Part shown: in pieces, positions 1 through 9,391 of the stretch
Numbering within the stretch: the first letter of the stretch is position 1
Layout: every line of letters begins with the position of its first letter
Origin: Candidatus Omnitrophota bacterium
Lineage (GTDB): Bacteria > Omnitrophota > Gorgyraeia > Duberdicusellales > 4484-171
Direction of reading: 5' to 3'
Assembly (NCBI GenBank): GCA_021735655.1
Contig: JAIPGM010000015.1
Location: 1 to 9,391, forward strand
Length of the DNA: 9,391 bases
The notes under the pieces: model-generated
The model's input: only the letters and a program-made list of their open reading frames with translations
The model's database searches: none
Told to the model about the DNA's origin: nothing
Position numbers and translations under genes: made by a program

Positions 1-138
1 CTCCTTTACGGGGTCAATTAAGCCCCAGAAAAACAATACAACCTATAACCTATCTACTCTGTGACTATCTATTTATTCTACTGATAATCCAGAGTTTTCA
101 CCAACTATCATTGAACAATTATCGTATCATCTCCTTTT

Positions 139-1416
139 TTAAGCCAAAGATTCTCTTAATGCCTTATCGCCGATATCCTTTCGATAAAACATCTTGTCGA
201 ATTGAATATCATCTATTGCTTGGTAAGCCTTGATTTGAGCATCTTTTATCGTATCGCCCAAACCAACAACTCCTAAAACTCTTCCGCCGCTAGTTAGTAA
301 TTTCTGATTAAATTTCGTACCGGCGTGGAAAACAAAAACATCCTCTCTATTCTCTAGCTTCTCTAAACCGGTTATCTCTTTAAATTTCTCATAATTTCCC
401 GGATAGCCGCCGGAAGCTAAAACAACACAAAGACAAAAACGTTCATCCCACTCTAAATTTACCCCATTAAGTCTACCTTCAGCAGTTTTTAACATAATCT
501 CGAAAAGATCGCTCTTTAACTTAGGCAAAATTGCCTGAGTTTCCGGATCGCCGAATCTTACGTTGAATTCTAAAACTGAAATCTCCTCATCTTTAATCAT
601 TAAGCCAGCATAAAGAATACCCCTATAGGGTTTGCCTTCGGCTCTTAACCCATCAATTAAAGGTTTAAATACCTGATCAATAATCTTTTTTAAAAGTTGA
701 TCATTAACTAAAGGTGCCGGTGAATAAGCTCCCATACCTCCGGTGTTAGGACCTTTATCGCCGTCAAAAGCAGCCTTATGGTCCTGTGAAGACACTAAAG
801 GCAAGATGGTTTCACCATCACTAAATATTAAGATTGAAGCCTCTTGGCCCTTTAGGCAATCTTCAATAATTACTCTGTAGCCGGCTGAGCCAAACTTTCT
901 ATCAACCATAATCATATCAATTGCATCCTTGGCCTCATCTTGAGTTCTAGCTACAATAACTCCTTTTCCGGCAGCTAGGCCATCAGCCTTTATCACTATC
1001 GGTGCTCCTTTCCGATCTATATACTCTTTTGCTTTATCTGGACTATCAAAAACTTCAAAATCAGCAGTGGGAACTGAAAATTTACGCATCATTTCCTTAG
1101 AAAACACTTTGCTTCCTTCTAGACGAGCTAAGTCTTTTCTCGGACCAAATATCTTTAAACCCTGGCTTTCGAACTGATCAACTATACCCTTAACTAATGG
1201 CGCTTCCGGACCGACTACAGTTAAATCTATCTTTTCAGTCTTAGCAAACTTCAGGAGACTCTCAATATCAGTAGCTGAAATATCTAAATTCTCAGCAAGT
1301 AAAACAGTGCCACCATTGCCTGGCGCACAATAAAGTTTATCAACTAAAGCTGACTGGCTTAGCTTCCAAGCTAGGCAATGCTCGCGGCCGCCTGAACCAA
1401 TAACTAGCACCTTCAT
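139..1416 (-). CDS. purD: phosphoribosylamine--glycine ligase (GAR synthetase)
   Basis: 425-aa ORF. The N-terminus MKVLVIGSGGREHCLAWKL is the classic PurD glycine-rich loop plus the GGREH motif. The ATP-grasp body is present with the C-terminal PurD motifs GTKFNQ..LLTSGGRVLGV. The ATG start (1414-1416) overlaps the purM stop by 4 nt (ATGA), indicating translational coupling. Confidence 0.9.
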   Translation of the reverse strand: MKVLVIGSGGREHCLAWKLSQSALVDKLYCAPGNGGTVLLAENLDISATDIESLLKFAKTEKIDLTVVGPEAPLVKGIVDQFESQGLKIFGPRKDLARLEGSKVFSKEMMRKFSVPTADFEVFDSPDKAKEYIDRKGAPIVIKADGLAAGKGVIVARTQDEAKDAIDMIMVDRKFGSAGYRVIIEDCLKGQEASILIFSDGETILPLVSSQDHKAAFDGDKGPNTGGMGAYSPAPLVNDQLLKKIIDQVFKPLIDGLRAEGKPYRGILYAGLMIKDEEISVLEFNVRFGDPETQAILPKLKSDLFEIMLKTAEGRLNGVNLEWDERFCLCVVLASGGYPGNYEKFKEITGLEKLENREDVFVFHAGTKFNQKLLTSGGRVLGVVGLGDTIKDAQIKAYQAIDDIQFDKMFYRKDIGDKALRESLA

Positions 1417-2405
1417 CGTAACACCATTTTCTTAGAAGATTTAACTACCTGGCCAATGATCTCGGCTTTAACATATTTATTAAGCTGCCGCTTAAATTCT
1501 CGAGCATACTTTTTATCTACAGCTAAAATCATACCAATACCCATATTGAATACCGAGTACATCTCTTTTTCAGAAATTCCACCAGCCTTCTGAACTATTT
1601 TAAAGATCTCAGGAACTCTAAAACTATTTTTCTCGATCACCATACCTAAGCCTTTAGGTAAAATCTTAGTCGCCTTATTGTAAAAAGCTCCTCCGGTTAC
1701 ATGAGCAATACCTTTAATCGCTTTAAGCTGCGATTTATGGTTCTCAAGTAAAGAAAGGATCGGTTTTACATAGATACGTGTCGGAACCAATAACTTTTTA
1801 GCGTATTTTTTTATGCCTTTTGGACCTAAAGCTTTACGAACCAAGGAAAACCCGTTTGAATGAAAACCTGAAGACTCTAAACCAATCAAAAGATCACCGG
1901 CTTTAATATTTTTACAGTTAATCATCTTAGCCTTATCGACTATTCCTACGCAGAACCCGGCTAAATCATATTCCTGGCTTTTATACATCCCCGGCATCTC
2001 AGCAGTTTCACCGCCGAGTAAAAGACAATCCGACTCGCTTAAGCCTTGCTTGATGCCCAGCATAACCGCATCCAAAGTTGTGAGTTTTACCTTTCCGCAA
2101 GCAATATAATCCAAAAAGAAAAGCGGCCGAGCCCCGACACAAATTAAATCATTAACATTCATGGCAACCAAATCTACTCCGACCGTATTGTGAATTCCTA
2201 GCTTTTGAGCAATTATTAGCTTTGTGCCCACACCATCGGCTGAAGAAACTAAGTAAGGATTTTTGCATTTAGTCAAAGCTGAGGCTAAGGGAAAAACAGA
2301 GCCAAAGGCTTCGACCTTGCTTAAATTAGATAATTTAATCTTTTTAGCAAAAGCCTCGCCAATCTTTACATCTACGCCAGCTTGTTTATAGGTAACTTTT
2401 TTCAT
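1413..2405 (-). CDS. purM: phosphoribosylformylglycinamidine cyclo-ligase (AIR synthetase)
   Basis: 330-aa ORF. It carries the PurM family motifs YKQAGVDV, SADGVGTKL, VDLVAMNVNDLICVGARPLFFLDYIACGK, LLGGETAEMPGMY and HSNGFSLVRK. The ATG start (2403-2405) overlaps the purQ TAA stop by 1 nt (TAATG). Confidence 0.9.
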   Translation of the reverse strand: MKKVTYKQAGVDVKIGEAFAKKIKLSNLSKVEAFGSVFPLASALTKCKNPYLVSSADGVGTKLIIAQKLGIHNTVGVDLVAMNVNDLICVGARPLFFLDYIACGKVKLTTLDAVMLGIKQGLSESDCLLLGGETAEMPGMYKSQEYDLAGFCVGIVDKAKMINCKNIKAGDLLIGLESSGFHSNGFSLVRKALGPKGIKKYAKKLLVPTRIYVKPILSLLENHKSQLKAIKGIAHVTGGAFYNKATKILPKGLGMVIEKNSFRVPEIFKIVQKAGGISEKEMYSVFNMGIGMILAVDKKYAREFKRQLNKYVKAEIIGQVVKSSKKMVLR

Positions 2406-3157
2406 TATTTAAAGTAGTTAACTGCGTTTTTAAAAAATCCTAATCCTTGGGGGCTAATCTTTTTATCTTTCCAAAGCGGCCAATGATGCTCAAAAATAAA
2501 ACGTTCTGGATGCGGCATTAACCCCAGGACTCTTCCGCTAGAATCGCAAATTCCAGCTATTGCTTTAAGCGATCCATTAGGATTAAAAGGGTAGCTGGCC
2601 TCATCACCTTGGCTATCGACATAACGAAGAGCGATCTGATTGTTTAGTTCTATTTTATCTAAAATACTTGATTCTGCATAGAATTTTCCTTCTCCGTGAG
2701 CTATTGGCAGACGAATCACTTCATCTAAGCCCTTAAGCCAAACGCTTTCTGAGCTGACCCTTAGATAGACCCAACGATCTTCAAAACGATCAGAATCATT
2801 ATTAGTCAAAGTAACCTTTTGTTTAAAATCAATGTCCGGCAAAATACCGGTTTTTACCAGAACCTGAAATCCATTACAAATGCCTAAAATTAAGCCACCT
2901 TTATCAATGAAACCCTGCAAACTTTCCCTCAACCAGCAAAGAAATTCCAAAGAAAGAATTTTTCCAGCACCTAAATCATCACCGTAGCTAAACCCTCCAG
3001 GAATACAAAGTATCTGATAACTGGAAAGGTCTGGCTTCTCTTTAATATAATTTATATGAGCCAATTTAGTGTCCGCTCCGGCTAAATTAAAAGCAAATTC
3101 AGTCTCCTTGTCGCAGTTAATTCCGGCTGTGCGAATAATTAGAGTTTTTGGTTTCAT
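2405..3157 (-). CDS. purQ: phosphoribosylformylglycinamidine synthase, glutaminase subunit (PurQ, class I glutamine amidotransferase)
   Basis: 250-aa ORF. It aligns along its length with the known PurQ organisation: CIPGGFSYGDDLG, the nucleophile cysteine in LGICNGFQVL, PIAHGEGKFY, NNQIALRYVD, NPNGSLKAIAGI and the catalytic histidine in LMPHPER. It lies 11 nt downstream of the purL stop with no strong SD, so it is probably coupled. Confidence 0.87.
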   Translation of the reverse strand: MKPKTLIIRTAGINCDKETEFAFNLAGADTKLAHINYIKEKPDLSSYQILCIPGGFSYGDDLGAGKILSLEFLCWLRESLQGFIDKGGLILGICNGFQVLVKTGILPDIDFKQKVTLTNNDSDRFEDRWVYLRVSSESVWLKGLDEVIRLPIAHGEGKFYAESSILDKIELNNQIALRYVDSQGDEASYPFNPNGSLKAIAGICDSSGRVLGLMPHPERFIFEHHWPLWKDKKISPQGLGFFKNAVNYFK

Positions 3158-3168
3158 CTTTATTAAAT

Positions 3169-6057
3169 TTATCTAAATTCAGAGAATGTTCTCATCCAAC
3201 AATCTCTCAAAGTTTCTACCGGCTGATTAATAACTTCTTTACAGTCCTTGCTATAAACAATCAGCTTCTTCTTATCAGAAACACAACCGATTAAGCCAAA
3301 TGGGGAGTCGACCAAGGCTCGTTCAAATTCATTTTGATTTACCTTATTTACCTCAACAACAAACCGCGAAGCTGACTCAGAGAATAACAGCTCATAATCA
3401 AGCATGCTAGAGAGCTTAGGTACCTCTTCTAAGAACACATTTGCTCCCAAATCTGCCCCGATACACATCTCAGAAATTGCAACTGCCAAACCACCCTCAG
3501 AACAGTCATGGCAAGATTCAACTAACCCTTTTTCCATCGCTTGGCTAAGACGTTCAAATATACTTTTTGCACAAGCCTTGTCAACCTTAGGTACTAGGCC
3601 TTCGGTAATATTGTATTTTCGAAAATACTCTGAAGCTCCCATTTCCGGCTTGGTAAAACCGACTACATAAATAAGATTATCCTTGGCCTTAAAGTTATTA
3701 CTAATAACCTTCTGCCAATCAGAGATAATTGACATTGCTGAAATTAGCAAGGTTCCGGGGATCGAAATATGTTTTCCGGAAACATCATACTCATTATAAA
3801 GACTGTCTTTTCCGGAAATAAACGGTACGCCAAAGTAGGTTGAAAAATCATAACAAGCAACTGAGGCTCTGACTAAAGCTCCCAGCACCGATTCATCCTG
3901 CGGCGACCCCCAGCAGAAATTATCAAGAATGAAGGTTTTATCTAACTTTGCGCCACTAGAAACAACATTGCGTAAAGCTTCATCAATAGCTAAGGCCGCC
4001 ATCCAGTAAGGGTCAAGATCAGAATAAAAAGGATTAATCCCAAAACCAACGGCAACGCAAGACTTACTTTCTAAATCCGGCCGGCTAATTGCTGCATCAC
4101 TTACTGCAACCCGCGCAATACCGCTAACTGCTTTGTTAACTGATCCAGCCTGCACCTCATGATCATACTGTCTGACAATCCAATCCTTAGAAGCAATATT
4201 AGGAGTAGCTAACAAATCTCCGAGGTCATCGTTGTATGCATCTTTAGCTTCAATCTTTAAGTCGACTTGCTTTTTGTCTACCCAAGAAGCTTTCTTTTCT
4301 AGCTTAGGTAAATCAAAAATAAGCTCTAAATCGATGTCGCAAACTTTATTACTTTCATAAAAAAGCTCTAACTTCTGGGTTTCGGTAACTTCACCGACTA
4401 CGGTTAGCTCAACATCCTCTTCCTTAAAAATATCCTCTAACTCGGCTAGCTTATCACGACTTGTAAAAAATACCATCCGCTCTTGAGATTCAGATATCCA
4501 AATCTCAGTATAAGTTAAGCCGCGATACTTTAAAGGAACTTTATCAAGGTCAACTTTGACACCATGTTCCTGAGCTAATTCAGTTATTGCACTGGAAATA
4601 CCACCGGCTCCGCAATCAGTAATCGCAGAAAATAAATCCTTATCACGAGCCCTAAGAATAGCCTCGGTTAACTTTTTTTCTTCAATCGGATTGCCGACCT
4701 GAACAGCCGTAGTAAGACCTACTGTGTGTTCATCGAGCTCTTTAGATGAAAAAGTCGCCCCGTGGATTCCATCCCTTCCGGTTTTAGCCCCACAAAGAAT
4801 AACTAAATCGCCGGGCTTTGACTTTTTAAATGACTTCTCTTTAGGCAAAATGCCCAAAGTCCCGCAATAGACTAAAGGATTACCTAAAAATCTCTTATCG
4901 AACAAGACTGCTCCGCCAATCGTAGGGATTCCCATGCGATTTCCGTAGTCGCGCACACCCTTAATAACTCCTTTTATTATCCGTTTAGGATGAAGCAGAC
5001 CCTGTGGTACCTGATCATGCTTTAGGTCCCAGGGTGAAAAACAAAATATATCAACTGATGAAAAAGGCTTAGCCGCACAACCAGTTCCCAAGATATCTCT
5101 GATAACTCCGCCAATGCCAGTCGATGCACCACCGTAAGGCTCTAAACTTGAAGGGTGATTATGAGTTTCAACTTTAAAACAAATATTATTCTTCTTATCA
5201 AACTTAACTACTCCGGCATTATCTTCAAATACTGACACGCAATCCGGATGAGCGATCTCCTTAGTTGCCTTAAATACCGTTGACTTAAGTAAATTATTAA
5301 TTGTTTCTTGTTTTATTAGCTTTCCTTCTGAATCCTTTTGGCTGTATTCAATCAGGCCACGGAAAGTCTTGTGAGCGCAATGTTCCGACCAAAGCGTAGC
5401 AATAGTTTCAAGCTCACAATCGGTAGGATTACGTTTTAACTTTTGAAAGTAAGCCTGAATTATTTTCATCTCATCAAGACTCAAAGAAAGACAACCTTGC
5501 TTTGAAATCTCTTTTAATTTTTCATCACTAGCCTCCAATACCTCTACTGTCACAAGATTAAAGCTGTAGTCCTTACCTGAAAACTCATCAAGAGTAGCCA
5601 ATCTAGAACCCTGCTCATATTCTAAAATATGTTCAATAAGCGGATTATAAAGTAATTTTGAAGCAAGATACAATATTTGTTCTTTGGCTAAACCAACAAA
5701 TTCATAAAACCGGGCGCAACGAGCACTTTTTAGATTTAAAGACATATCGCTGACTGCCTTCTCAAGCGACAAAGCTACCGTATCGCAAACTCCGGGATTA
5801 TAAGTTATCAATATTTGATTATCTTCAGGTCGGTCTTCAAAAATACCACGAGTTATACTGTAGGCTTCAATAATCGGATCAATTAAAAGCTGGGTCGCAA
5901 TCATCTCAAGCTGACCTTGGCCTAGATCAGCCTCGAGAAGATAGACTTTACGAGTAAAAACTTGTGGGTTTAAAGCGATACCTAAATCGCTTATTTCGGA
6001 AGCGATCTTTGAAGAAGAAGCTTTTTCTTTTGAAAATACGTCTATTCTCCAAATCAT
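3169..6057 (-). CDS. purL: phosphoribosylformylglycinamidine synthase, synthetase subunit PurL with two N-terminal PurS-like repeats (PurS-PurS-PurL fusion)
   Basis: 962-aa ORF, about 200 aa longer than a stand-alone small PurL. The PurL core begins around residue 200 (DEMKIIQAYFQKLKRNPTDCELETIATLWSEHCAHK, matching the small-PurL N-terminus ...SEHCSYK). Further PurL/PurM-superfamily motifs follow: FKVETHNHPSSLEPYGGASTGIGGVIRD, YGNRMGIPTIGG and, in the second half, GFGINPFYSDLDPYWMAALAIDEALRNVVSSGA. Residues about 1-75 (RIDVFSK...SEISDLGI..VFTRKVYLLEADLG..LEMIATQLLIDPIIEAYSI) and about 80-160 (ILITYNPGVCDTVALSLEKAV..FYEFVGL..ILYLASKLLYNPLIEHILEY) each match the PurS pattern (beta strand, DPQG/xAVxxALxxLG, GKxxEL, LLANPVIEDY). 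Confidence 0.88.
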   Translation of the reverse strand: MIWRIDVFSKEKASSSKIASEISDLGIALNPQVFTRKVYLLEADLGQGQLEMIATQLLIDPIIEAYSITRGIFEDRPEDNQILITYNPGVCDTVALSLEKAVSDMSLNLKSARCARFYEFVGLAKEQILYLASKLLYNPLIEHILEYEQGSRLATLDEFSGKDYSFNLVTVEVLEASDEKLKEISKQGCLSLSLDEMKIIQAYFQKLKRNPTDCELETIATLWSEHCAHKTFRGLIEYSQKDSEGKLIKQETINNLLKSTVFKATKEIAHPDCVSVFEDNAGVVKFDKKNNICFKVETHNHPSSLEPYGGASTGIGGVIRDILGTGCAAKPFSSVDIFCFSPWDLKHDQVPQGLLHPKRIIKGVIKGVRDYGNRMGIPTIGGAVLFDKRFLGNPLVYCGTLGILPKEKSFKKSKPGDLVILCGAKTGRDGIHGATFSSKELDEHTVGLTTAVQVGNPIEEKKLTEAILRARDKDLFSAITDCGAGGISSAITELAQEHGVKVDLDKVPLKYRGLTYTEIWISESQERMVFFTSRDKLAELEDIFKEEDVELTVVGEVTETQKLELFYESNKVCDIDLELIFDLPKLEKKASWVDKKQVDLKIEAKDAYNDDLGDLLATPNIASKDWIVRQYDHEVQAGSVNKAVSGIARVAVSDAAISRPDLESKSCVAVGFGINPFYSDLDPYWMAALAIDEALRNVVSSGAKLDKTFILDNFCWGSPQDESVLGALVRASVACYDFSTYFGVPFISGKDSLYNEYDVSGKHISIPGTLLISAMSIISDWQKVISNNFKAKDNLIYVVGFTKPEMGASEYFRKYNITEGLVPKVDKACAKSIFERLSQAMEKGLVESCHDCSEGGLAVAISEMCIGADLGANVFLEEVPKLSSMLDYELLFSESASRFVVEVNKVNQNEFERALVDSPFGLIGCVSDKKKLIVYSKDCKEVINQPVETLRDCWMRTFSEFR

Positions 6058-6071
6058 TTGTCGGTGAATTT

Positions 6072-6088
6072 TTGCCTTATTCAGGCAA
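6072..6088 (-). other. intercistronic stem-loop (6-bp stem TTGCCT/AGGCAA, 5-nt loop) between purB stop and purSL start
   Basis: A perfect inverted repeat ttgccttattcaggcaa lies in the 72-nt purB-purL gap. On the minus-strand RNA the hairpin is followed by AAAAAUU, not a U-tract, so it is not a canonical terminator. It may be an mRNA stability or processing element. Confidence 0.3.
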
Positions 6089-6090
6089 GA

Positions 6091-6098
6091 TCAATTGA
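6091..6098. promoter_or_regulatory. 8-bp palindrome TCAATTGA upstream of purSL (copy 1 of 2)
   Basis: The same perfect palindrome occurs at 7501-7508, overlapping the -35 of the purB promoter candidate. Scanning by eye, I did not find it in the coding sequence. Confidence 0.25.
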
Positions 6099-6129
6099 AC
6101 GATTAAATGCGGATAGTAAAACTCGTTAG

Positions 6130-7425
6130 CTACGCCATTCCTACTCTTTCATAAATCTTATCTACATTCGAAAGGTAAGCATAAGGATTAAAAATTTCCT
6201 CAAGCTCTTTCTTAGTTAGAAGTTTCTTGACCTTCGAATTCAAAAAACTCTCCTTCTTAAAAGATGATTTTTTATTAATTACCTTTAAAGCAATACCTTG
6301 AACGATATCATAAGCTCTGATCCGCGGGATACCTTTGTCCATCAATTTAAGTAACAGTTTCTGAGAATAAACAATGCCACGGTTAAGCTCGATATTTTTA
6401 AGCATATTTTCAGAGTTAACCTTTAGATCACCAACCACCTGCTTAAACTTCTTAAGCATATAGTCTAGGGCTATCGTTGAATCGGGTAAAACAATTCTTT
6501 CGGATGATGAATGCGATATGTCCCGTTCATGCCAAAGATTAATATTCTCAGAGCCAACCAACATATTGGCCCGCAAAATTCTAGCTAAACCGCAGATTCG
6601 TTCACAAACAATCGGATTTTGCTTGTGCGGCATCGCGCTTGATCCTTTCTGTCCCTTATAAAACGGCTCTTTTACTTCATCAACTTCATTCCTATGCAAA
6701 TGTCTGACCTCGGTAGCGAATCTCTCTAGAGTTGAGCCAATCAAGGAAAGTAAAGATAAGTAGTAAGCGATTCTTTCCCGAGAAACAATCTGGGTTGATA
6801 TTAAAGCCGGCTTTATTTTAAGCTTTTTACAAATATACTCTTCAACCCTTAAATTAAAATGAGCAAAGGTTCCAACTGCTCCGGAAATCTTTCCACAAGC
6901 AACATAATCAAGACTATCAGCTAAAAGCTTTCTTTCCTCTCTTAAATCATTATAAAGATATAAAAACTTAAGACCAAAACTATAAACCTCAGCATGTACT
7001 CCATGAGTTCGAGCCATGCAAAGAGTATCTTTGTATTTAAGGGCTTTCTTCTTAACTTCAGCTAAAACCAAATCCAAATCTTTCAAGATAACTAAAGTTG
7101 CATCCTTTATCTGTGTGGCTAAAGTCGTATCAAGTAAATCTGATGAAGTCAAACCCAAATGCAAATATTGAGCATCTTTGCCAATTTGTTTAGATATATG
7201 TTTCAGGAAAGCTATAATATCGTGGTGGGTCTTCTCCTCGATCTTTTTAATTGCCAGGGTAGAAATCTTTACCTTTGAAAAGCTCTTACTGACACCTTTG
7301 GGGATCTTTTTTTGCTTCTCTAAAGCTTCACAAAGTAAGGCTTCAATCTTTAAAAAACGCTTAAATTTTTCATCCTCACTCCAAATATTACCAATTTCAG
7401 TCGGAGTATAACGCTTGATCATCAA
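6130..7425 (-). CDS. purB: adenylosuccinate lyase
   Basis: 431-aa ORF (430 aa if the ATG at 7420-7422 is the start). It has the fumarate-lyase superfamily signature GSSAMPHKQNP and the PurB-type N-terminus RYTPTEIGNIWSEDEKFKRFLKIEALLCEAL. The track start at 7423-7425 is TTG. The in-frame ATG one codon downstream is better spaced from the GAGGTG Shine-Dalgarno, so the true start is probably 7422. Confidence 0.9.
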   Translation of the reverse strand: MMIKRYTPTEIGNIWSEDEKFKRFLKIEALLCEALEKQKKIPKGVSKSFSKVKISTLAIKKIEEKTHHDIIAFLKHISKQIGKDAQYLHLGLTSSDLLDTTLATQIKDATLVILKDLDLVLAEVKKKALKYKDTLCMARTHGVHAEVYSFGLKFLYLYNDLREERKLLADSLDYVACGKISGAVGTFAHFNLRVEEYICKKLKIKPALISTQIVSRERIAYYLSLLSLIGSTLERFATEVRHLHRNEVDEVKEPFYKGQKGSSAMPHKQNPIVCERICGLARILRANMLVGSENINLWHERDISHSSSERIVLPDSTIALDYMLKKFKQVVGDLKVNSENMLKNIELNRGIVYSQKLLLKLMDKGIPRIRAYDIVQGIALKVINKKSSFKKESFLNSKVKKLLTKKELEEIFNPYAYLSNVDKIYERVGMA

Positions 7426-7427
7426 TC

Positions 7428-7433
7428 ACCTCT
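7428..7433 (-). promoter_or_regulatory. Shine-Dalgarno GAGGTG for purB
   Basis: The minus strand reads CTAGAGGTGATTGATGATCAAG. The spacing is appropriate to the ATG at 7420-7422 rather than to the TTG at 7423-7425. Confidence 0.5.
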
Positions 7434-7475
7434 AGATTTACTTAGCCTTAAAAACAACCCTTAACAAGAGGTAAT

Positions 7476-7504
7476 ATCTTACCAAACAATTCTTTTTGAG
7501 TCAA
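7476..7504 (-). promoter_or_regulatory. candidate sigma70-type promoter for purB with extended -10 (TTGACT-N17-TAAGAT, TG at -15/-14)
   Basis: The minus strand reads AATTCAATTGACTCAAAAAGAATTGTTTGGTAAGATATTACC. The -35 TTGACT is plus 7499-7504. A 17-nt spacer ends in TGG, giving the extended -10 TG. The -10 TAAGAT is plus 7476-7481, about 50 nt upstream of the purB start. It sits in the 127-nt gap after the secretin stop. Confidence 0.4.
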
Positions 7505-7508
7505 TTGA
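7501..7508. promoter_or_regulatory. 8-bp palindrome TCAATTGA overlapping purB -35 (copy 2 of 2)
   Basis: The minus strand reads AATTCAATTGACTC. The palindrome extends to 10/12 of ATTCAATTGAAT. It shares the core TCAATTGA with the copy at 6091-6098. Confidence 0.25.
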
Positions 7509-7552
7509 ATTAGCAAAAAAATCCTTAGAAACAAAGAACTAAATAAGCCTTG

Positions 7553-9250
7553 CTAGCTAAGGGTAATTGCTATATCGAAGGTAAGCGACCGACGCCGGAT
7601 GCCTTGAGGAAAATTCGGTAAAGGACTAGCCTGTACAATCTCCTCTCTGATCGTTCGGTCGATAAGTTGAGAACCAGAGGCACGAAGCATGCTAATATCG
7701 CTGATATAACCATCAGACCCAACGGTAATTCTAAAGAGAATGTTACGATTTATGGCTGATGAGCTAGATAAGCTCAAGATAAGATTGCGGAAACGAGAAG
7801 TATCAATAACGTCTCGAGCGTAAGCTACGTAACGATCAACCAGATATCTTTGATCACCGTATACATTTGAGCTTGATTCTACTCTGATATTCTGAGAATT
7901 AATGACCGAATCCCTCCGAGAGCGGTAGTTCTGGCTAGGTTGAGACTTCCTTTTGAAAAAACGATTTTGACCTTCCTCGATCGAGTCCGGATCAAACTCT
8001 TTAAACTTTTCACCTAAATTCGACAGGTGCGGAGTTATAAAAATTAATACCTCCTTATCTTCAGCAGTCCTATCCTTCGATTTAAAAAAATTACCCAAAA
8101 AAGGAACGTGACTTAACATCGGGGCTCTGGTTTTGGTTTGACTTGAGTTGTGTTGGATAAGCCCTCCGATACCAATAGTGTCACCATCAAAAACCCTCAC
8201 GGTAGTAGACACTGTCCGTCGGTTTACTATCGGTAAATTAGCGCTACTGGTTCCGACAACTTCACTTACTTCCGGCTGAATTTTTACAGTAATTGCCCCG
8301 CTTGAAGAAACACTAGGGGTAACTTTTAGGGTAACTCCAGTACCAATTGATTGAAGAGTATTGTAAGGGTAGGCTTGAGAACCGGTATTAATTAAGAAAA
8401 ACTCCTCTTTGCCAATAAATATATTTGCCTCTTCTCCGTCTAAGGCTGAAATCCGCGGGTTAGCCCTTACCACTGCTTTTCCGGTCTGAATCATGGTTTT
8501 TAAGGTAATTAGAGTGCTCTGGGTAACTGTTCCGGAAAGAGTATATTCAGCAGTTGTCGCAGACCCCAAACCCTTCTCAAGAGTAAAGTTTGACGGCGGA
8601 CTAACCGTAAAACCACCCTCCTGCATACTACCCCACTTAACGCCCAGCTCTTTTTTATCCGATTCTGATATTTCAATAACTAAAGCTTCCATCATAACCT
8701 GTTGACGAGGTTGATCGATCTTATTAATATCCTGCCTGAAGCGAGCAATAATATTCAACGGGGCAGTAATTGTTACTGAATTATTTTGTAAATTAGCCTT
8801 AATGTAAGGATGAAAAAAGTCAGACACTAAAGACTCTACATCCTTGGCCTTGACATAATCCAAAGCTATAACCTCGGTTTTGGCTAAAAGGTCAAACACT
8901 GGGCTCTCCGGTTTAGCTAAGCCAACAATGTAATACTTATCTATCTTTTTAAAGTTATAGCCCAAAGGAATCAGAATCATACTCAAAGCTTCCTCTAGGG
9001 GTACATTTTCAAGTTCAACGTTAATAAAACCCTGGACCGAAGGATCAATAACAATCGGCACCTTGGTTTGAGCTGAAACGTCTTGAAGAGCCTGGCGAAC
9101 ATCAGTCTCATAAAATACATTATTTACCAAGGGCTCAACTGATTCAGCATCCAGGTAGCTTGCAAAAAAATCATCTGACGAATAAGCCGCCAGCGACACA
9201 AAAAACAATCCGGCCAAAAGAACAACACAAATTTCTTTTTTTAGTTTCAT
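7553..9250 (-). CDS. outer-membrane secretin (GspD/PilQ family) with N-terminal STN/N0 domain and a C-terminal TonB-C-like extension
   Basis: 565-aa ORF with a cleavable signal peptide (MKLKKEICVVLLAGLFFVSLAAYSS). An STN/N0 domain spans about residues 43-110 (DVRQALQDVSAQTKVPIVIDP...VPLEEALSMILIPLGYNFKKIDKYYIVG). One secretin N-domain follows (QQVMMEALVIEISESDKKELGVKW). The canonical secretin core is present: VVRANPRISALDGEEANIFIGKEEFF ... RVFDGDTIGIGGLI ... APMLSHVPFLGNFFKSK...KEVLIFITPHL. The last 100 aa or so (NILFRITVGSDGYISDISMLRASGSQLIDRTIREEIVQASPLPNFPQG...SLTFDIAITL) match the TonB C-terminal domain pattern. A Shine-Dalgarno AGGAGA sits 5 nt upstream of the ATG. Confidence 0.8.
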   Translation of the reverse strand: MKLKKEICVVLLAGLFFVSLAAYSSDDFFASYLDAESVEPLVNNVFYETDVRQALQDVSAQTKVPIVIDPSVQGFINVELENVPLEEALSMILIPLGYNFKKIDKYYIVGLAKPESPVFDLLAKTEVIALDYVKAKDVESLVSDFFHPYIKANLQNNSVTITAPLNIIARFRQDINKIDQPRQQVMMEALVIEISESDKKELGVKWGSMQEGGFTVSPPSNFTLEKGLGSATTAEYTLSGTVTQSTLITLKTMIQTGKAVVRANPRISALDGEEANIFIGKEEFFLINTGSQAYPYNTLQSIGTGVTLKVTPSVSSSGAITVKIQPEVSEVVGTSSANLPIVNRRTVSTTVRVFDGDTIGIGGLIQHNSSQTKTRAPMLSHVPFLGNFFKSKDRTAEDKEVLIFITPHLSNLGEKFKEFDPDSIEEGQNRFFKRKSQPSQNYRSRRDSVINSQNIRVESSSNVYGDQRYLVDRYVAYARDVIDTSRFRNLILSLSSSSAINRNILFRITVGSDGYISDISMLRASGSQLIDRTIREEIVQASPLPNFPQGIRRRSLTFDIAITLS

Positions 9251-9255
9251 TTGAA

Positions 9256-9260
9256 TCTCC
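9256..9260 (-). promoter_or_regulatory. Shine-Dalgarno GGAGA for the secretin gene
   Basis: The minus strand reads ACATAGGAGATTCAAATGAAACTA, placing GGAGA 5 nt before the ATG. This supports 9250 as the start. Confidence 0.55.
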
Positions 9261-9301
9261 TATGTTAATTGTCCAGTATATTCTACTCTCAAAATATCAA
9301 G

Positions 9302-9341
9302 CCATTTATCGCAAGCCCTACATTAGGCTGGAGATAAATGG
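9302..9341. repeat. 9-bp perfect inverted repeat CCATTTATC-N22-GATAAATGG upstream of the secretin gene
   Basis: It lies at plus 9302-9310 and 9333-9341, about 50-90 nt upstream of the secretin ATG on the minus strand. The loop contains a small nested inverted repeat (AGCC..GGCT). Confidence 0.4.
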
Positions 9342-9391
9342 TAAACTTTTTTATCAGATTGTAATTTAAAATTACTAAAATCTTCAAATAC

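Follow-up and report, generated by a model that had tools for sequence, protein, structure and literature searches.

The stretch of DNA considered here is a contig of 9,391 nucleotides (nt) from the Candidatus Omnitrophota bacterium assembly GCA_021735655.1 (JAIPGM010000015.1, positions 1 to 9,391 of the forward strand), which in its whole length is called the window below. Its minus strand carries, in order of transcription, a secretin-like gene, purB, a gene for a protein of 962 amino acids (aa), purQ, purM, and purD (Table 1). The 962-aa gene, an uninterrupted open reading frame (ORF) with an ATG start at 3169..6057 in the ORF list of the window, is the subject of this report. Its product is identical to the NCBI Candidatus Omnitrophica protein P0004, which is the window's own entry and is labelled 'subunit PurL' only, and the gene very probably encodes the PurSL (mdPurL) subunit of formylglycinamidine ribonucleotide (FGAM) synthetase, also named formylglycinamide ribonucleotide (FGAR) amidotransferase (EC 6.3.5.3).

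An earlier reading made from the sequence alone had noted that no stand-alone purS lies between purB and purQ, and indeed the coding strand of this interval holds no further ORF of at least 60 aa besides the 962-aa one; the other ORF present there, of 88 aa, runs antisense (3404-3670) and is without family evidence. The same reading had placed a separate purQ directly downstream, which is confirmed by the coordinates and by the scores of its product (PF13507, 268 bits; TIGR01737, 212 bits, passing the cut-off of 177.8); the PurQ motifs GICNGFQ and MPHPER are present, with the Cys and His-Pro-Glu motifs kept. Elsewhere in the 9.4-kb window no PurS-like ORF of at least 45 aa was found.

Table 1. 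Coordinates of purSL, of the segments of its product, and of the accompanying pur genes in the window
Feature	Position	Strand	Basis and remarks
purSL (mdPurL)	3169..6057	-	PurS-PurS-linker-PurL single chain, 962 aa; Pfam PurS, FGAR-AT_linker, AIRS, AIRS_C
PurS-like unit 1, aa 1-74	5836..6057	-	beta-alpha-beta-alpha-beta; family profile against PurS structures
PurS-like unit 2, aa 79-149	5611..5823	-	Pfam PurS; family profile against PurS structures; hhalign against unit 1
Tether from PurS unit 2 to linker domain, aa 150-180	5518..5610	-	two short helices, pLDDT 75-85
FGAR-AT linker domain, aa 181-230	5368..5517	-	PF18072, 69.2 bits; ends in SEHCAHK (aa 224-230)
Small-PurL-type FGAM synthetase core, aa 192-960	3178..5484	-	TIGR01736
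purQ	2405..3157	-	separate glutaminase subunit, 250 aa; 11 nt past purSL stop codon
purB (adenylosuccinate lyase)	6130..7425	-	Pfam Lyase_1 and ADSL_C; upstream neighbour, same operon-like cluster
purM	1413-2405	-	Pfam AIRS/AIRS_C; downstream gene of cluster
purD	139-1416	-	Pfam GARS_N/A/C; downstream gene of cluster

A tandem PurS module at the N-terminus

The proposal that the protein begins with two tandem repeats carrying PurS motifs was borne out. All of the motifs quoted for the repeats are found in the translation, namely ASEISDLGI (aa 19-27), LLIDPIIEAYSI (aa 57-68), PGVCDTVALSLEKAV (aa 88-102), and LLYNPLIEHILEY (aa 135-147). The comparison with PurS hidden Markov models (HMMs) that had been suggested as a check was run and returned significant similarity over aa 1-160, so the proposal survives it: PF02700 (Pfam PurS) matches this region in two stretches with 36.2 bits, above the gathering score of 22.2, the second unit alone reaches 23.0 bits and passes the same cut-off, and the NCBIfam PurS models agree with the Pfam picture. 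Neither unit is a free-standing PurS of about 80 aa, as both lie inside the 962-aa chain.

A family profile built from 24 homologous N-domains recovers PurS where the single sequence did not. Positions 4-73 of this profile match the PurS structures MTH169/1gtd (E 2.9e-6), MJ1593/2yx5, and B. subtilis 1t4a, and positions 83-147 match 8j3n (E 7e-5), T. maritima 3d54_B, and T. thermophilus 2cuw. When the profiles of the two units were aligned with each other, hhalign gave a probability of 98.4% (E 1e-14, 63 columns). On account of these profile matches and of the alignment between the units, the two N-terminal halves are homologous both to each other and to PurS.

Predicted structure of the N-domain and of the whole chain

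The structure prediction that had been proposed as a further check was likewise run. The AlphaFold2 (AF2) model of aa 1-175, computed from 48 sequences, has a mean predicted local distance difference test (pLDDT) score of 93 and consists of two consecutive beta-alpha-beta-alpha-beta units, the first with strands at aa 2-9, 32-42, and 64-70 and helices at aa 16-24 and 47-58, and the second with strands at aa 81-86, 111-121, and 142-144 and helices at aa 93-104 and 125-136. Each unit thus has the PurS fold, a three-stranded sheet with two helices, and in the model the two units are arranged next to each other like the protomers of a PurS dimer. A Foldseek search with the N-domain model placed large PurL at the top (about 155 columns, probability 1.00) and recovered PurS chains at target-normalised template modelling (TM) scores of 0.63-0.70; the model superposes on the N-domain of large PurL over 143 residues. 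The model of the entire protein (pLDDT 87, pTM 0.88) aligns with large PurL over about 1030 columns at a query-normalised TM score of 0.85-0.87, and with the small PurL of T. thermophilus at a target-normalised TM score of 0.92.

Structural homology between the PurS dimer and the N-domain of large PurL has been described (PMC3815217). Given this homology and the match between the N-domain modelled here and that of large PurL, the fused PurS pair is predicted to occupy the position of the PurS dimer.

A core of the small-PurL type

The affinity of the core for small or large PurL was judged by HMM and phmmer bit scores. The region spanning aa 192-960 passes TIGR01736, the equivalog model of small PurL (FGAM synthase II), with 627.6 bits against a cut-off of 525.75, whereas the large-PurL models TIGR01735, PRK05297, and TIGR01857 all fail, with 301.8, 365.7, and 342.4 bits against cut-offs of 1123, 783, and 1057, respectively. 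The closest solved sequences by phmmer are the small PurLs 3viu (317 bits) and T. maritima 3d54_A (238 bits); large PurL 1t3t (StPurL) reaches 180 bits, in an alignment that pairs residue 177 with residue 175 of StPurL. Across 45 homologues the catalytic motifs SEHCxHK and ETHNHPS do not vary, nor do W223, S224, E225, H226, C227, and H229. There is no fused C-terminal glutaminase, the chain ending at aa 962 and PurQ being a separate ORF.

The in-frame fusion of the PurS units to a PurL core, as originally described, is therefore supported by the HMMs, the internal-repeat test, the structure prediction, and the fold search. It had also been suggested that the gene is an intermediate between small- and large-PurL systems and a snapshot of how large PurL could have arisen. 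This stands for the architecture; it does not stand for the ancestry of the E. coli-type enzyme, since a core that passes TIGR01736 and fails three of three large-PurL models has no demonstrated place on the lineage leading to it. Judged by its sequence, then, PurSL is an architectural intermediate and not a shown ancestor of E. coli-type large PurL.

Distribution and integrity of the fusion

A survey of related genomes for a PurL of about 950-970 aa had been recommended, and it was carried out in two ways. Among the best 120 clusters (51-100% identity) full-length members measure 944-987 aa, mostly 962, and almost all of these clusters carry precomputed PF02700, PF18072, PF00586, and PF02769. 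One genome of each GTDB species was also scanned, with an alignment of four N-domain sequences as the query, and 41 loci were found; because this query is biased to Omnitrophota-like motifs, the spread of the fusion outside Omnitrophota is under-sampled. Thirty-eight loci, found in metagenome-assembled genomes (MAGs) labelled Omnitrophota, 'uncultured Planctomycetia', or plain 'bacterium', belong to close relatives, with 47-65% identity in the first 190 aa; the remaining loci come from one more distant 'uncultured Planctomycetia' MAG (32%), a WOR-3 bacterium with a protein of 932 aa, an Enhygromyxa MAG (1009 aa), and an unclassified bacterium (1005 aa). Most Omnitrophota-type loci share the order purB-purSL-purQ(-purM-purD). 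In every related locus that reaches far enough, purSL is followed by a separate purQ, with the WOR-3 locus L042 as the exception. No further PurS-like ORF of at least 45 aa occurs in any of the 41 loci over a distance of about 5 kb from the gene. The PurS-PurS-PurL fusion, seen as a gene of about 962 aa in more than 120 protein clusters and in the 41 species loci, is the standard form in Omnitrophota.

The labels of some of these assemblies deserve a comment of their own. Several MAGs called 'uncultured Planctomycetia' (L004, L005, L008, L010, L012, and other TPA assemblies) carry purSL genes, in the purB-purSL-purQ synteny, that are 51-65% identical to those of Omnitrophota MAGs; their labels look too coarse or wrong.

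It could be argued that the N-terminal 160 aa are unrelated to PurS, or that the long ORF is two genes joined by an error of sequencing or assembly. Taken as a single sequence, the region resembles PurS only weakly (phmmer returned nothing and unit 1 is sub-threshold), and some relatives appear as separate 'PurS' proteins of 165-215 aa. These short proteins are, however, fragments, coming from contigs with split genes (L001 and L002) or, for P0003, from a sequence with an adapter at its end; PurS is strongly supported by the profiles, the repeat test, and the fold; and the gene is uninterrupted in independent assemblies of dozens of species, at every locus not cut by a contig end among the 41 species genomes. 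Since full-length relatives measure 944-987 aa and the gene is unbroken wherever the contig allows it to be read, the fusion is no assembly artefact. We give the notion of an unrelated domain or a joining error practically no credence, and consider it already refuted by the lengths of the homologues, the PurS profile matches, the repeat test, the loci, and the superposition.

A word-indexed search with the N-terminal 190 aa had at first yielded three short proteins resembling a stand-alone double PurS, which were rejected as fragments; for the 165-215-aa 'PurS' proteins a stand-alone reading is ruled out, their contigs having split genes or being cut by contig ends. In L001 and L002 the split genes include purB (in three pieces in L001), purL in both, and a pantoate transferase gene, also in pieces. 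P0003 ends in SEEHTSELQSH, which by our own translation is read-through of an Illumina TruSeq adapter.

Comparison with known systems

The architecture PurS-PurS-PurL is already known, and the gene of the window is an ordinary member of the mdPurL/PurSL variant, as is evident from the literature and from existing database labels. Brown et al. (2011, Biol Direct 6:63, PMC3261824) described in methanogens an 'mdPurL' with about 200 extra N-terminal residues, and suspected only, sequence identity being low, that this extension replaces purS, which was lacking from five of six archaeal genomes with mdPurL. The label 'subunit PurSL' is used by JGI/IMG for P0232 (946 aa), a protein found with the N-domain profile. 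Presumably KEGG, too, has an orthology entry for PurSL. The window's protein is of the expected build: aa 1-191, which comprise the tandem PurS module and the tether, precede the TIGR01736 match, and purQ is separate. It shares with methanogen mdPurL the extended N-terminus in the position of PurS and the separate purQ; the described cases are archaeal, whereas this one is bacterial (Omnitrophota) and its extension is shown as tandem PurS folds. This likeness is one of architecture. What the present analysis adds is that the extension is made up of tandem PurS folds which, according to sequence profiles and the predicted model, are arranged as in large PurL, that the fused form is standard in Omnitrophota, and that neighbouring fusion states exist in related lineages.

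With the PurS2-PurL-PurQ systems of T. maritima (3D54) and B. subtilis the protein has in common a small-PurL core, PurS-fold units, and a separate PurQ, but its PurS protomers are covalently joined to each other and to PurL, and a free PurS dimer would not be needed. With large PurL (Salmonella StPurL, 1T3T; human PFAS, 9N9W) its N-domain and whole predicted model superpose; it differs in lacking a fused glutaminase, in an identity of about 22%, in failing the HMM cut-offs, and in an N-domain that is still recognisable as PurS by sequence. Sister fusion states in uncultivated bacteria are represented by L003, P0183, and P0205, described below, which share the tandem PurS module and have cores with 46-50% identity to the window protein; in L003 purS-purS and purL are separate, and in P0183 PurQ is fused as well.

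Proposed function

The assignment to PurSL draws on a domain composition, a fold, an equivalence to the N-domain of large PurL, and a conservation that are established above; enzyme activity, PurQ docking, and the dispensability of free PurS are inferred. Where PurS, PurL, and PurQ are three proteins, one small PurL and one PurQ are bound by a PurS dimer. In the window protein the two PurS protomers are a tandem duplication, connected to the N-terminus of the core by the tether of about 30 residues and the usual linker domain, and the fusion fixes the stoichiometry of two PurS to one PurL in one polypeptide. The tethered pair may then supply the adaptor surface given by the free PurS dimer elsewhere, and the separate PurQ would dock non-covalently on the surface that PurS-PurS and PurL form together and, by hydrolysing glutamine, would deliver ammonia to the active site of PurL, for an overall conversion of FGAR, ATP, and glutamine to FGAM, ADP, phosphate, and glutamate.

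Several observations weigh against the view that a fused PurS pair stands here in place of a free PurS dimer. A phmmer search with the single sequence of aa 1-190 found no PurS among PDB sequences, PurS unit 1 alone scores 17.5 bits on PF02700 and falls under the cut-off of 22.2, and the placement of the N-domain on the core comes from the AF2 model. One archaeon, moreover, carries both mdPurL and purS (Brown et al., PMC3261824). A free purS elsewhere in the MAG is conceivable too, the scope of the analysis being this 9.4-kb contig, and this scope gives some room to the idea that the fused PurS-PurS has gained a role beyond that of a structural adaptor (e.g. regulation) while a free PurS keeps the canonical role. 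We hold such an additional role to be very unlikely, as the N-domain superposes on that of large PurL over 143 residues and the whole model on large PurL, which points to the same adaptor position, as no extra PurS-like ORF occurs near the pur cluster in the 41 loci, and as five of six archaeal mdPurL genomes are without purS (PMC3261824).

Related fusion states

The N-domain profile was also searched exhaustively with HMMER against 1.84 billion representatives, which returned 1133 proteins at E <=0.001. Among them, fragments aside, are stand-alone tandem PurS-PurS proteins that look complete (about 149-162 aa), proteins of mdPurL length (935-979 aa), and chains of 1211-1215 aa. The first state is exemplified by the Endomicrobiales MAG GCA_016930715.1 (L003, 6001-8964), where a tandem purS-purS of 149 aa is followed by a purL of 837 aa and then by purQ. 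The tandem gene, whose product matches Pfam PurS with 64.5 bits in two stretches, ends in TAA and the ATG of purL follows directly in the same frame, so that one stop codon is the difference between this arrangement and the fused form. The PurL of L003 is 50% identical to the window core, and most of the tether (aa 150-180) is without counterpart there. At the other end of the series stand P0183 (1211 aa) and P0205 (1215 aa), from unclassified bacterial MAGs, which are PurS-PurS-PurL-PurQ single chains. Both pass the small-PurL model, fail three of three large-PurL NCBIfam models, and are labelled by NCBI merely 'subunit PurL'; they may constitute a third, unmodelled type of large PurL.

The existence of such single chains bears on the question of whether the gene of the window derives from a fully fused large PurL whose glutaminase was lost or split off (fission), rather than from a fusion between purS-purS and a small purL. 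Over about 950 residues P0183 shares 46% identity with the window protein, its C-terminal domain and the window PurQ are 50% identical in an arrangement that matches the gene order, and the present data show no direction of change. An origin from the classical large PurL is nevertheless made improbable by scores of 302-366 bits against cut-offs of 783-1123 where the small-PurL model passes, and Pfam reports only PurS on the N-domain, with no large-PurL N-terminal family. Moreover, purQ is separate in all untruncated Omnitrophota-type loci, so that any fission must be old. Taken together, fission or loss is an unlikely origin.

Three fusion states thus appear, from sequence comparison, to coexist in one fairly close clade whose cores are of the small-PurL type and 46-50% identical: a purS-purS gene abutting purL (Endomicrobiales), PurS-PurS-PurL with a separate PurQ (Omnitrophota, WOR-3, and a myxobacterium), and PurS-PurS-PurL-PurQ. 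It is tempting to see in this clade a second, independent route to a 'large PurL', stepwise and still in progress, alongside that of the classical proteobacterial and eukaryotic enzyme, a proposal that we make tentatively and with slightly more doubt than conviction. If true, the clade would offer natural constructs for what each covalent link adds to complex assembly and ammonia channelling. The natural series itself could provide ready-made constructs for relating PurS tethering to the assembly of the FGAM synthetase complex.

Significance for annotation

Our understanding of the purine pathway is unchanged by PurSL, and the practical value of the finding is in annotation. Where a lineage has PurSL, as Omnitrophota and others do, the lack of a purS call is no sign that the purine pathway is incomplete. 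The remark of the sequence-only reading that standard pipelines may report purS as missing was a fair one, given that the label chosen by NCBI names PurL only; a truncated homologue, on the other hand, is called 'subunit PurS'.

The gene cluster and its upstream neighbour

The end of purB and the start of purSL are separated by 72 nt, and no terminator-like site was found between these genes. Further downstream purQ and purM share a single base (position 2405), with which the purQ stop codon ends and the purM start codon begins, and purM and purD overlap by 4 nt (1413-1416). These overlaps, the short purSL-purQ gap, and the lack of a terminator-like site suggest that the purSL cluster is one tightly coupled transcript. 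An Rfam scan of the whole window reported no riboswitch and no other RNA family. A promoter-like site lies upstream of purB at 7504-7476 on the minus strand. Beyond it, also on the minus strand (7553-9250), is the secretin-like gene, whose 565-aa product has STN/N0, Secretin_N, and Secretin (142 bits) domains and, at its C-terminus (aa 501-557), a TonB_2 domain that scores 29.9 bits (cut-off 22), a combination that looks unusual.

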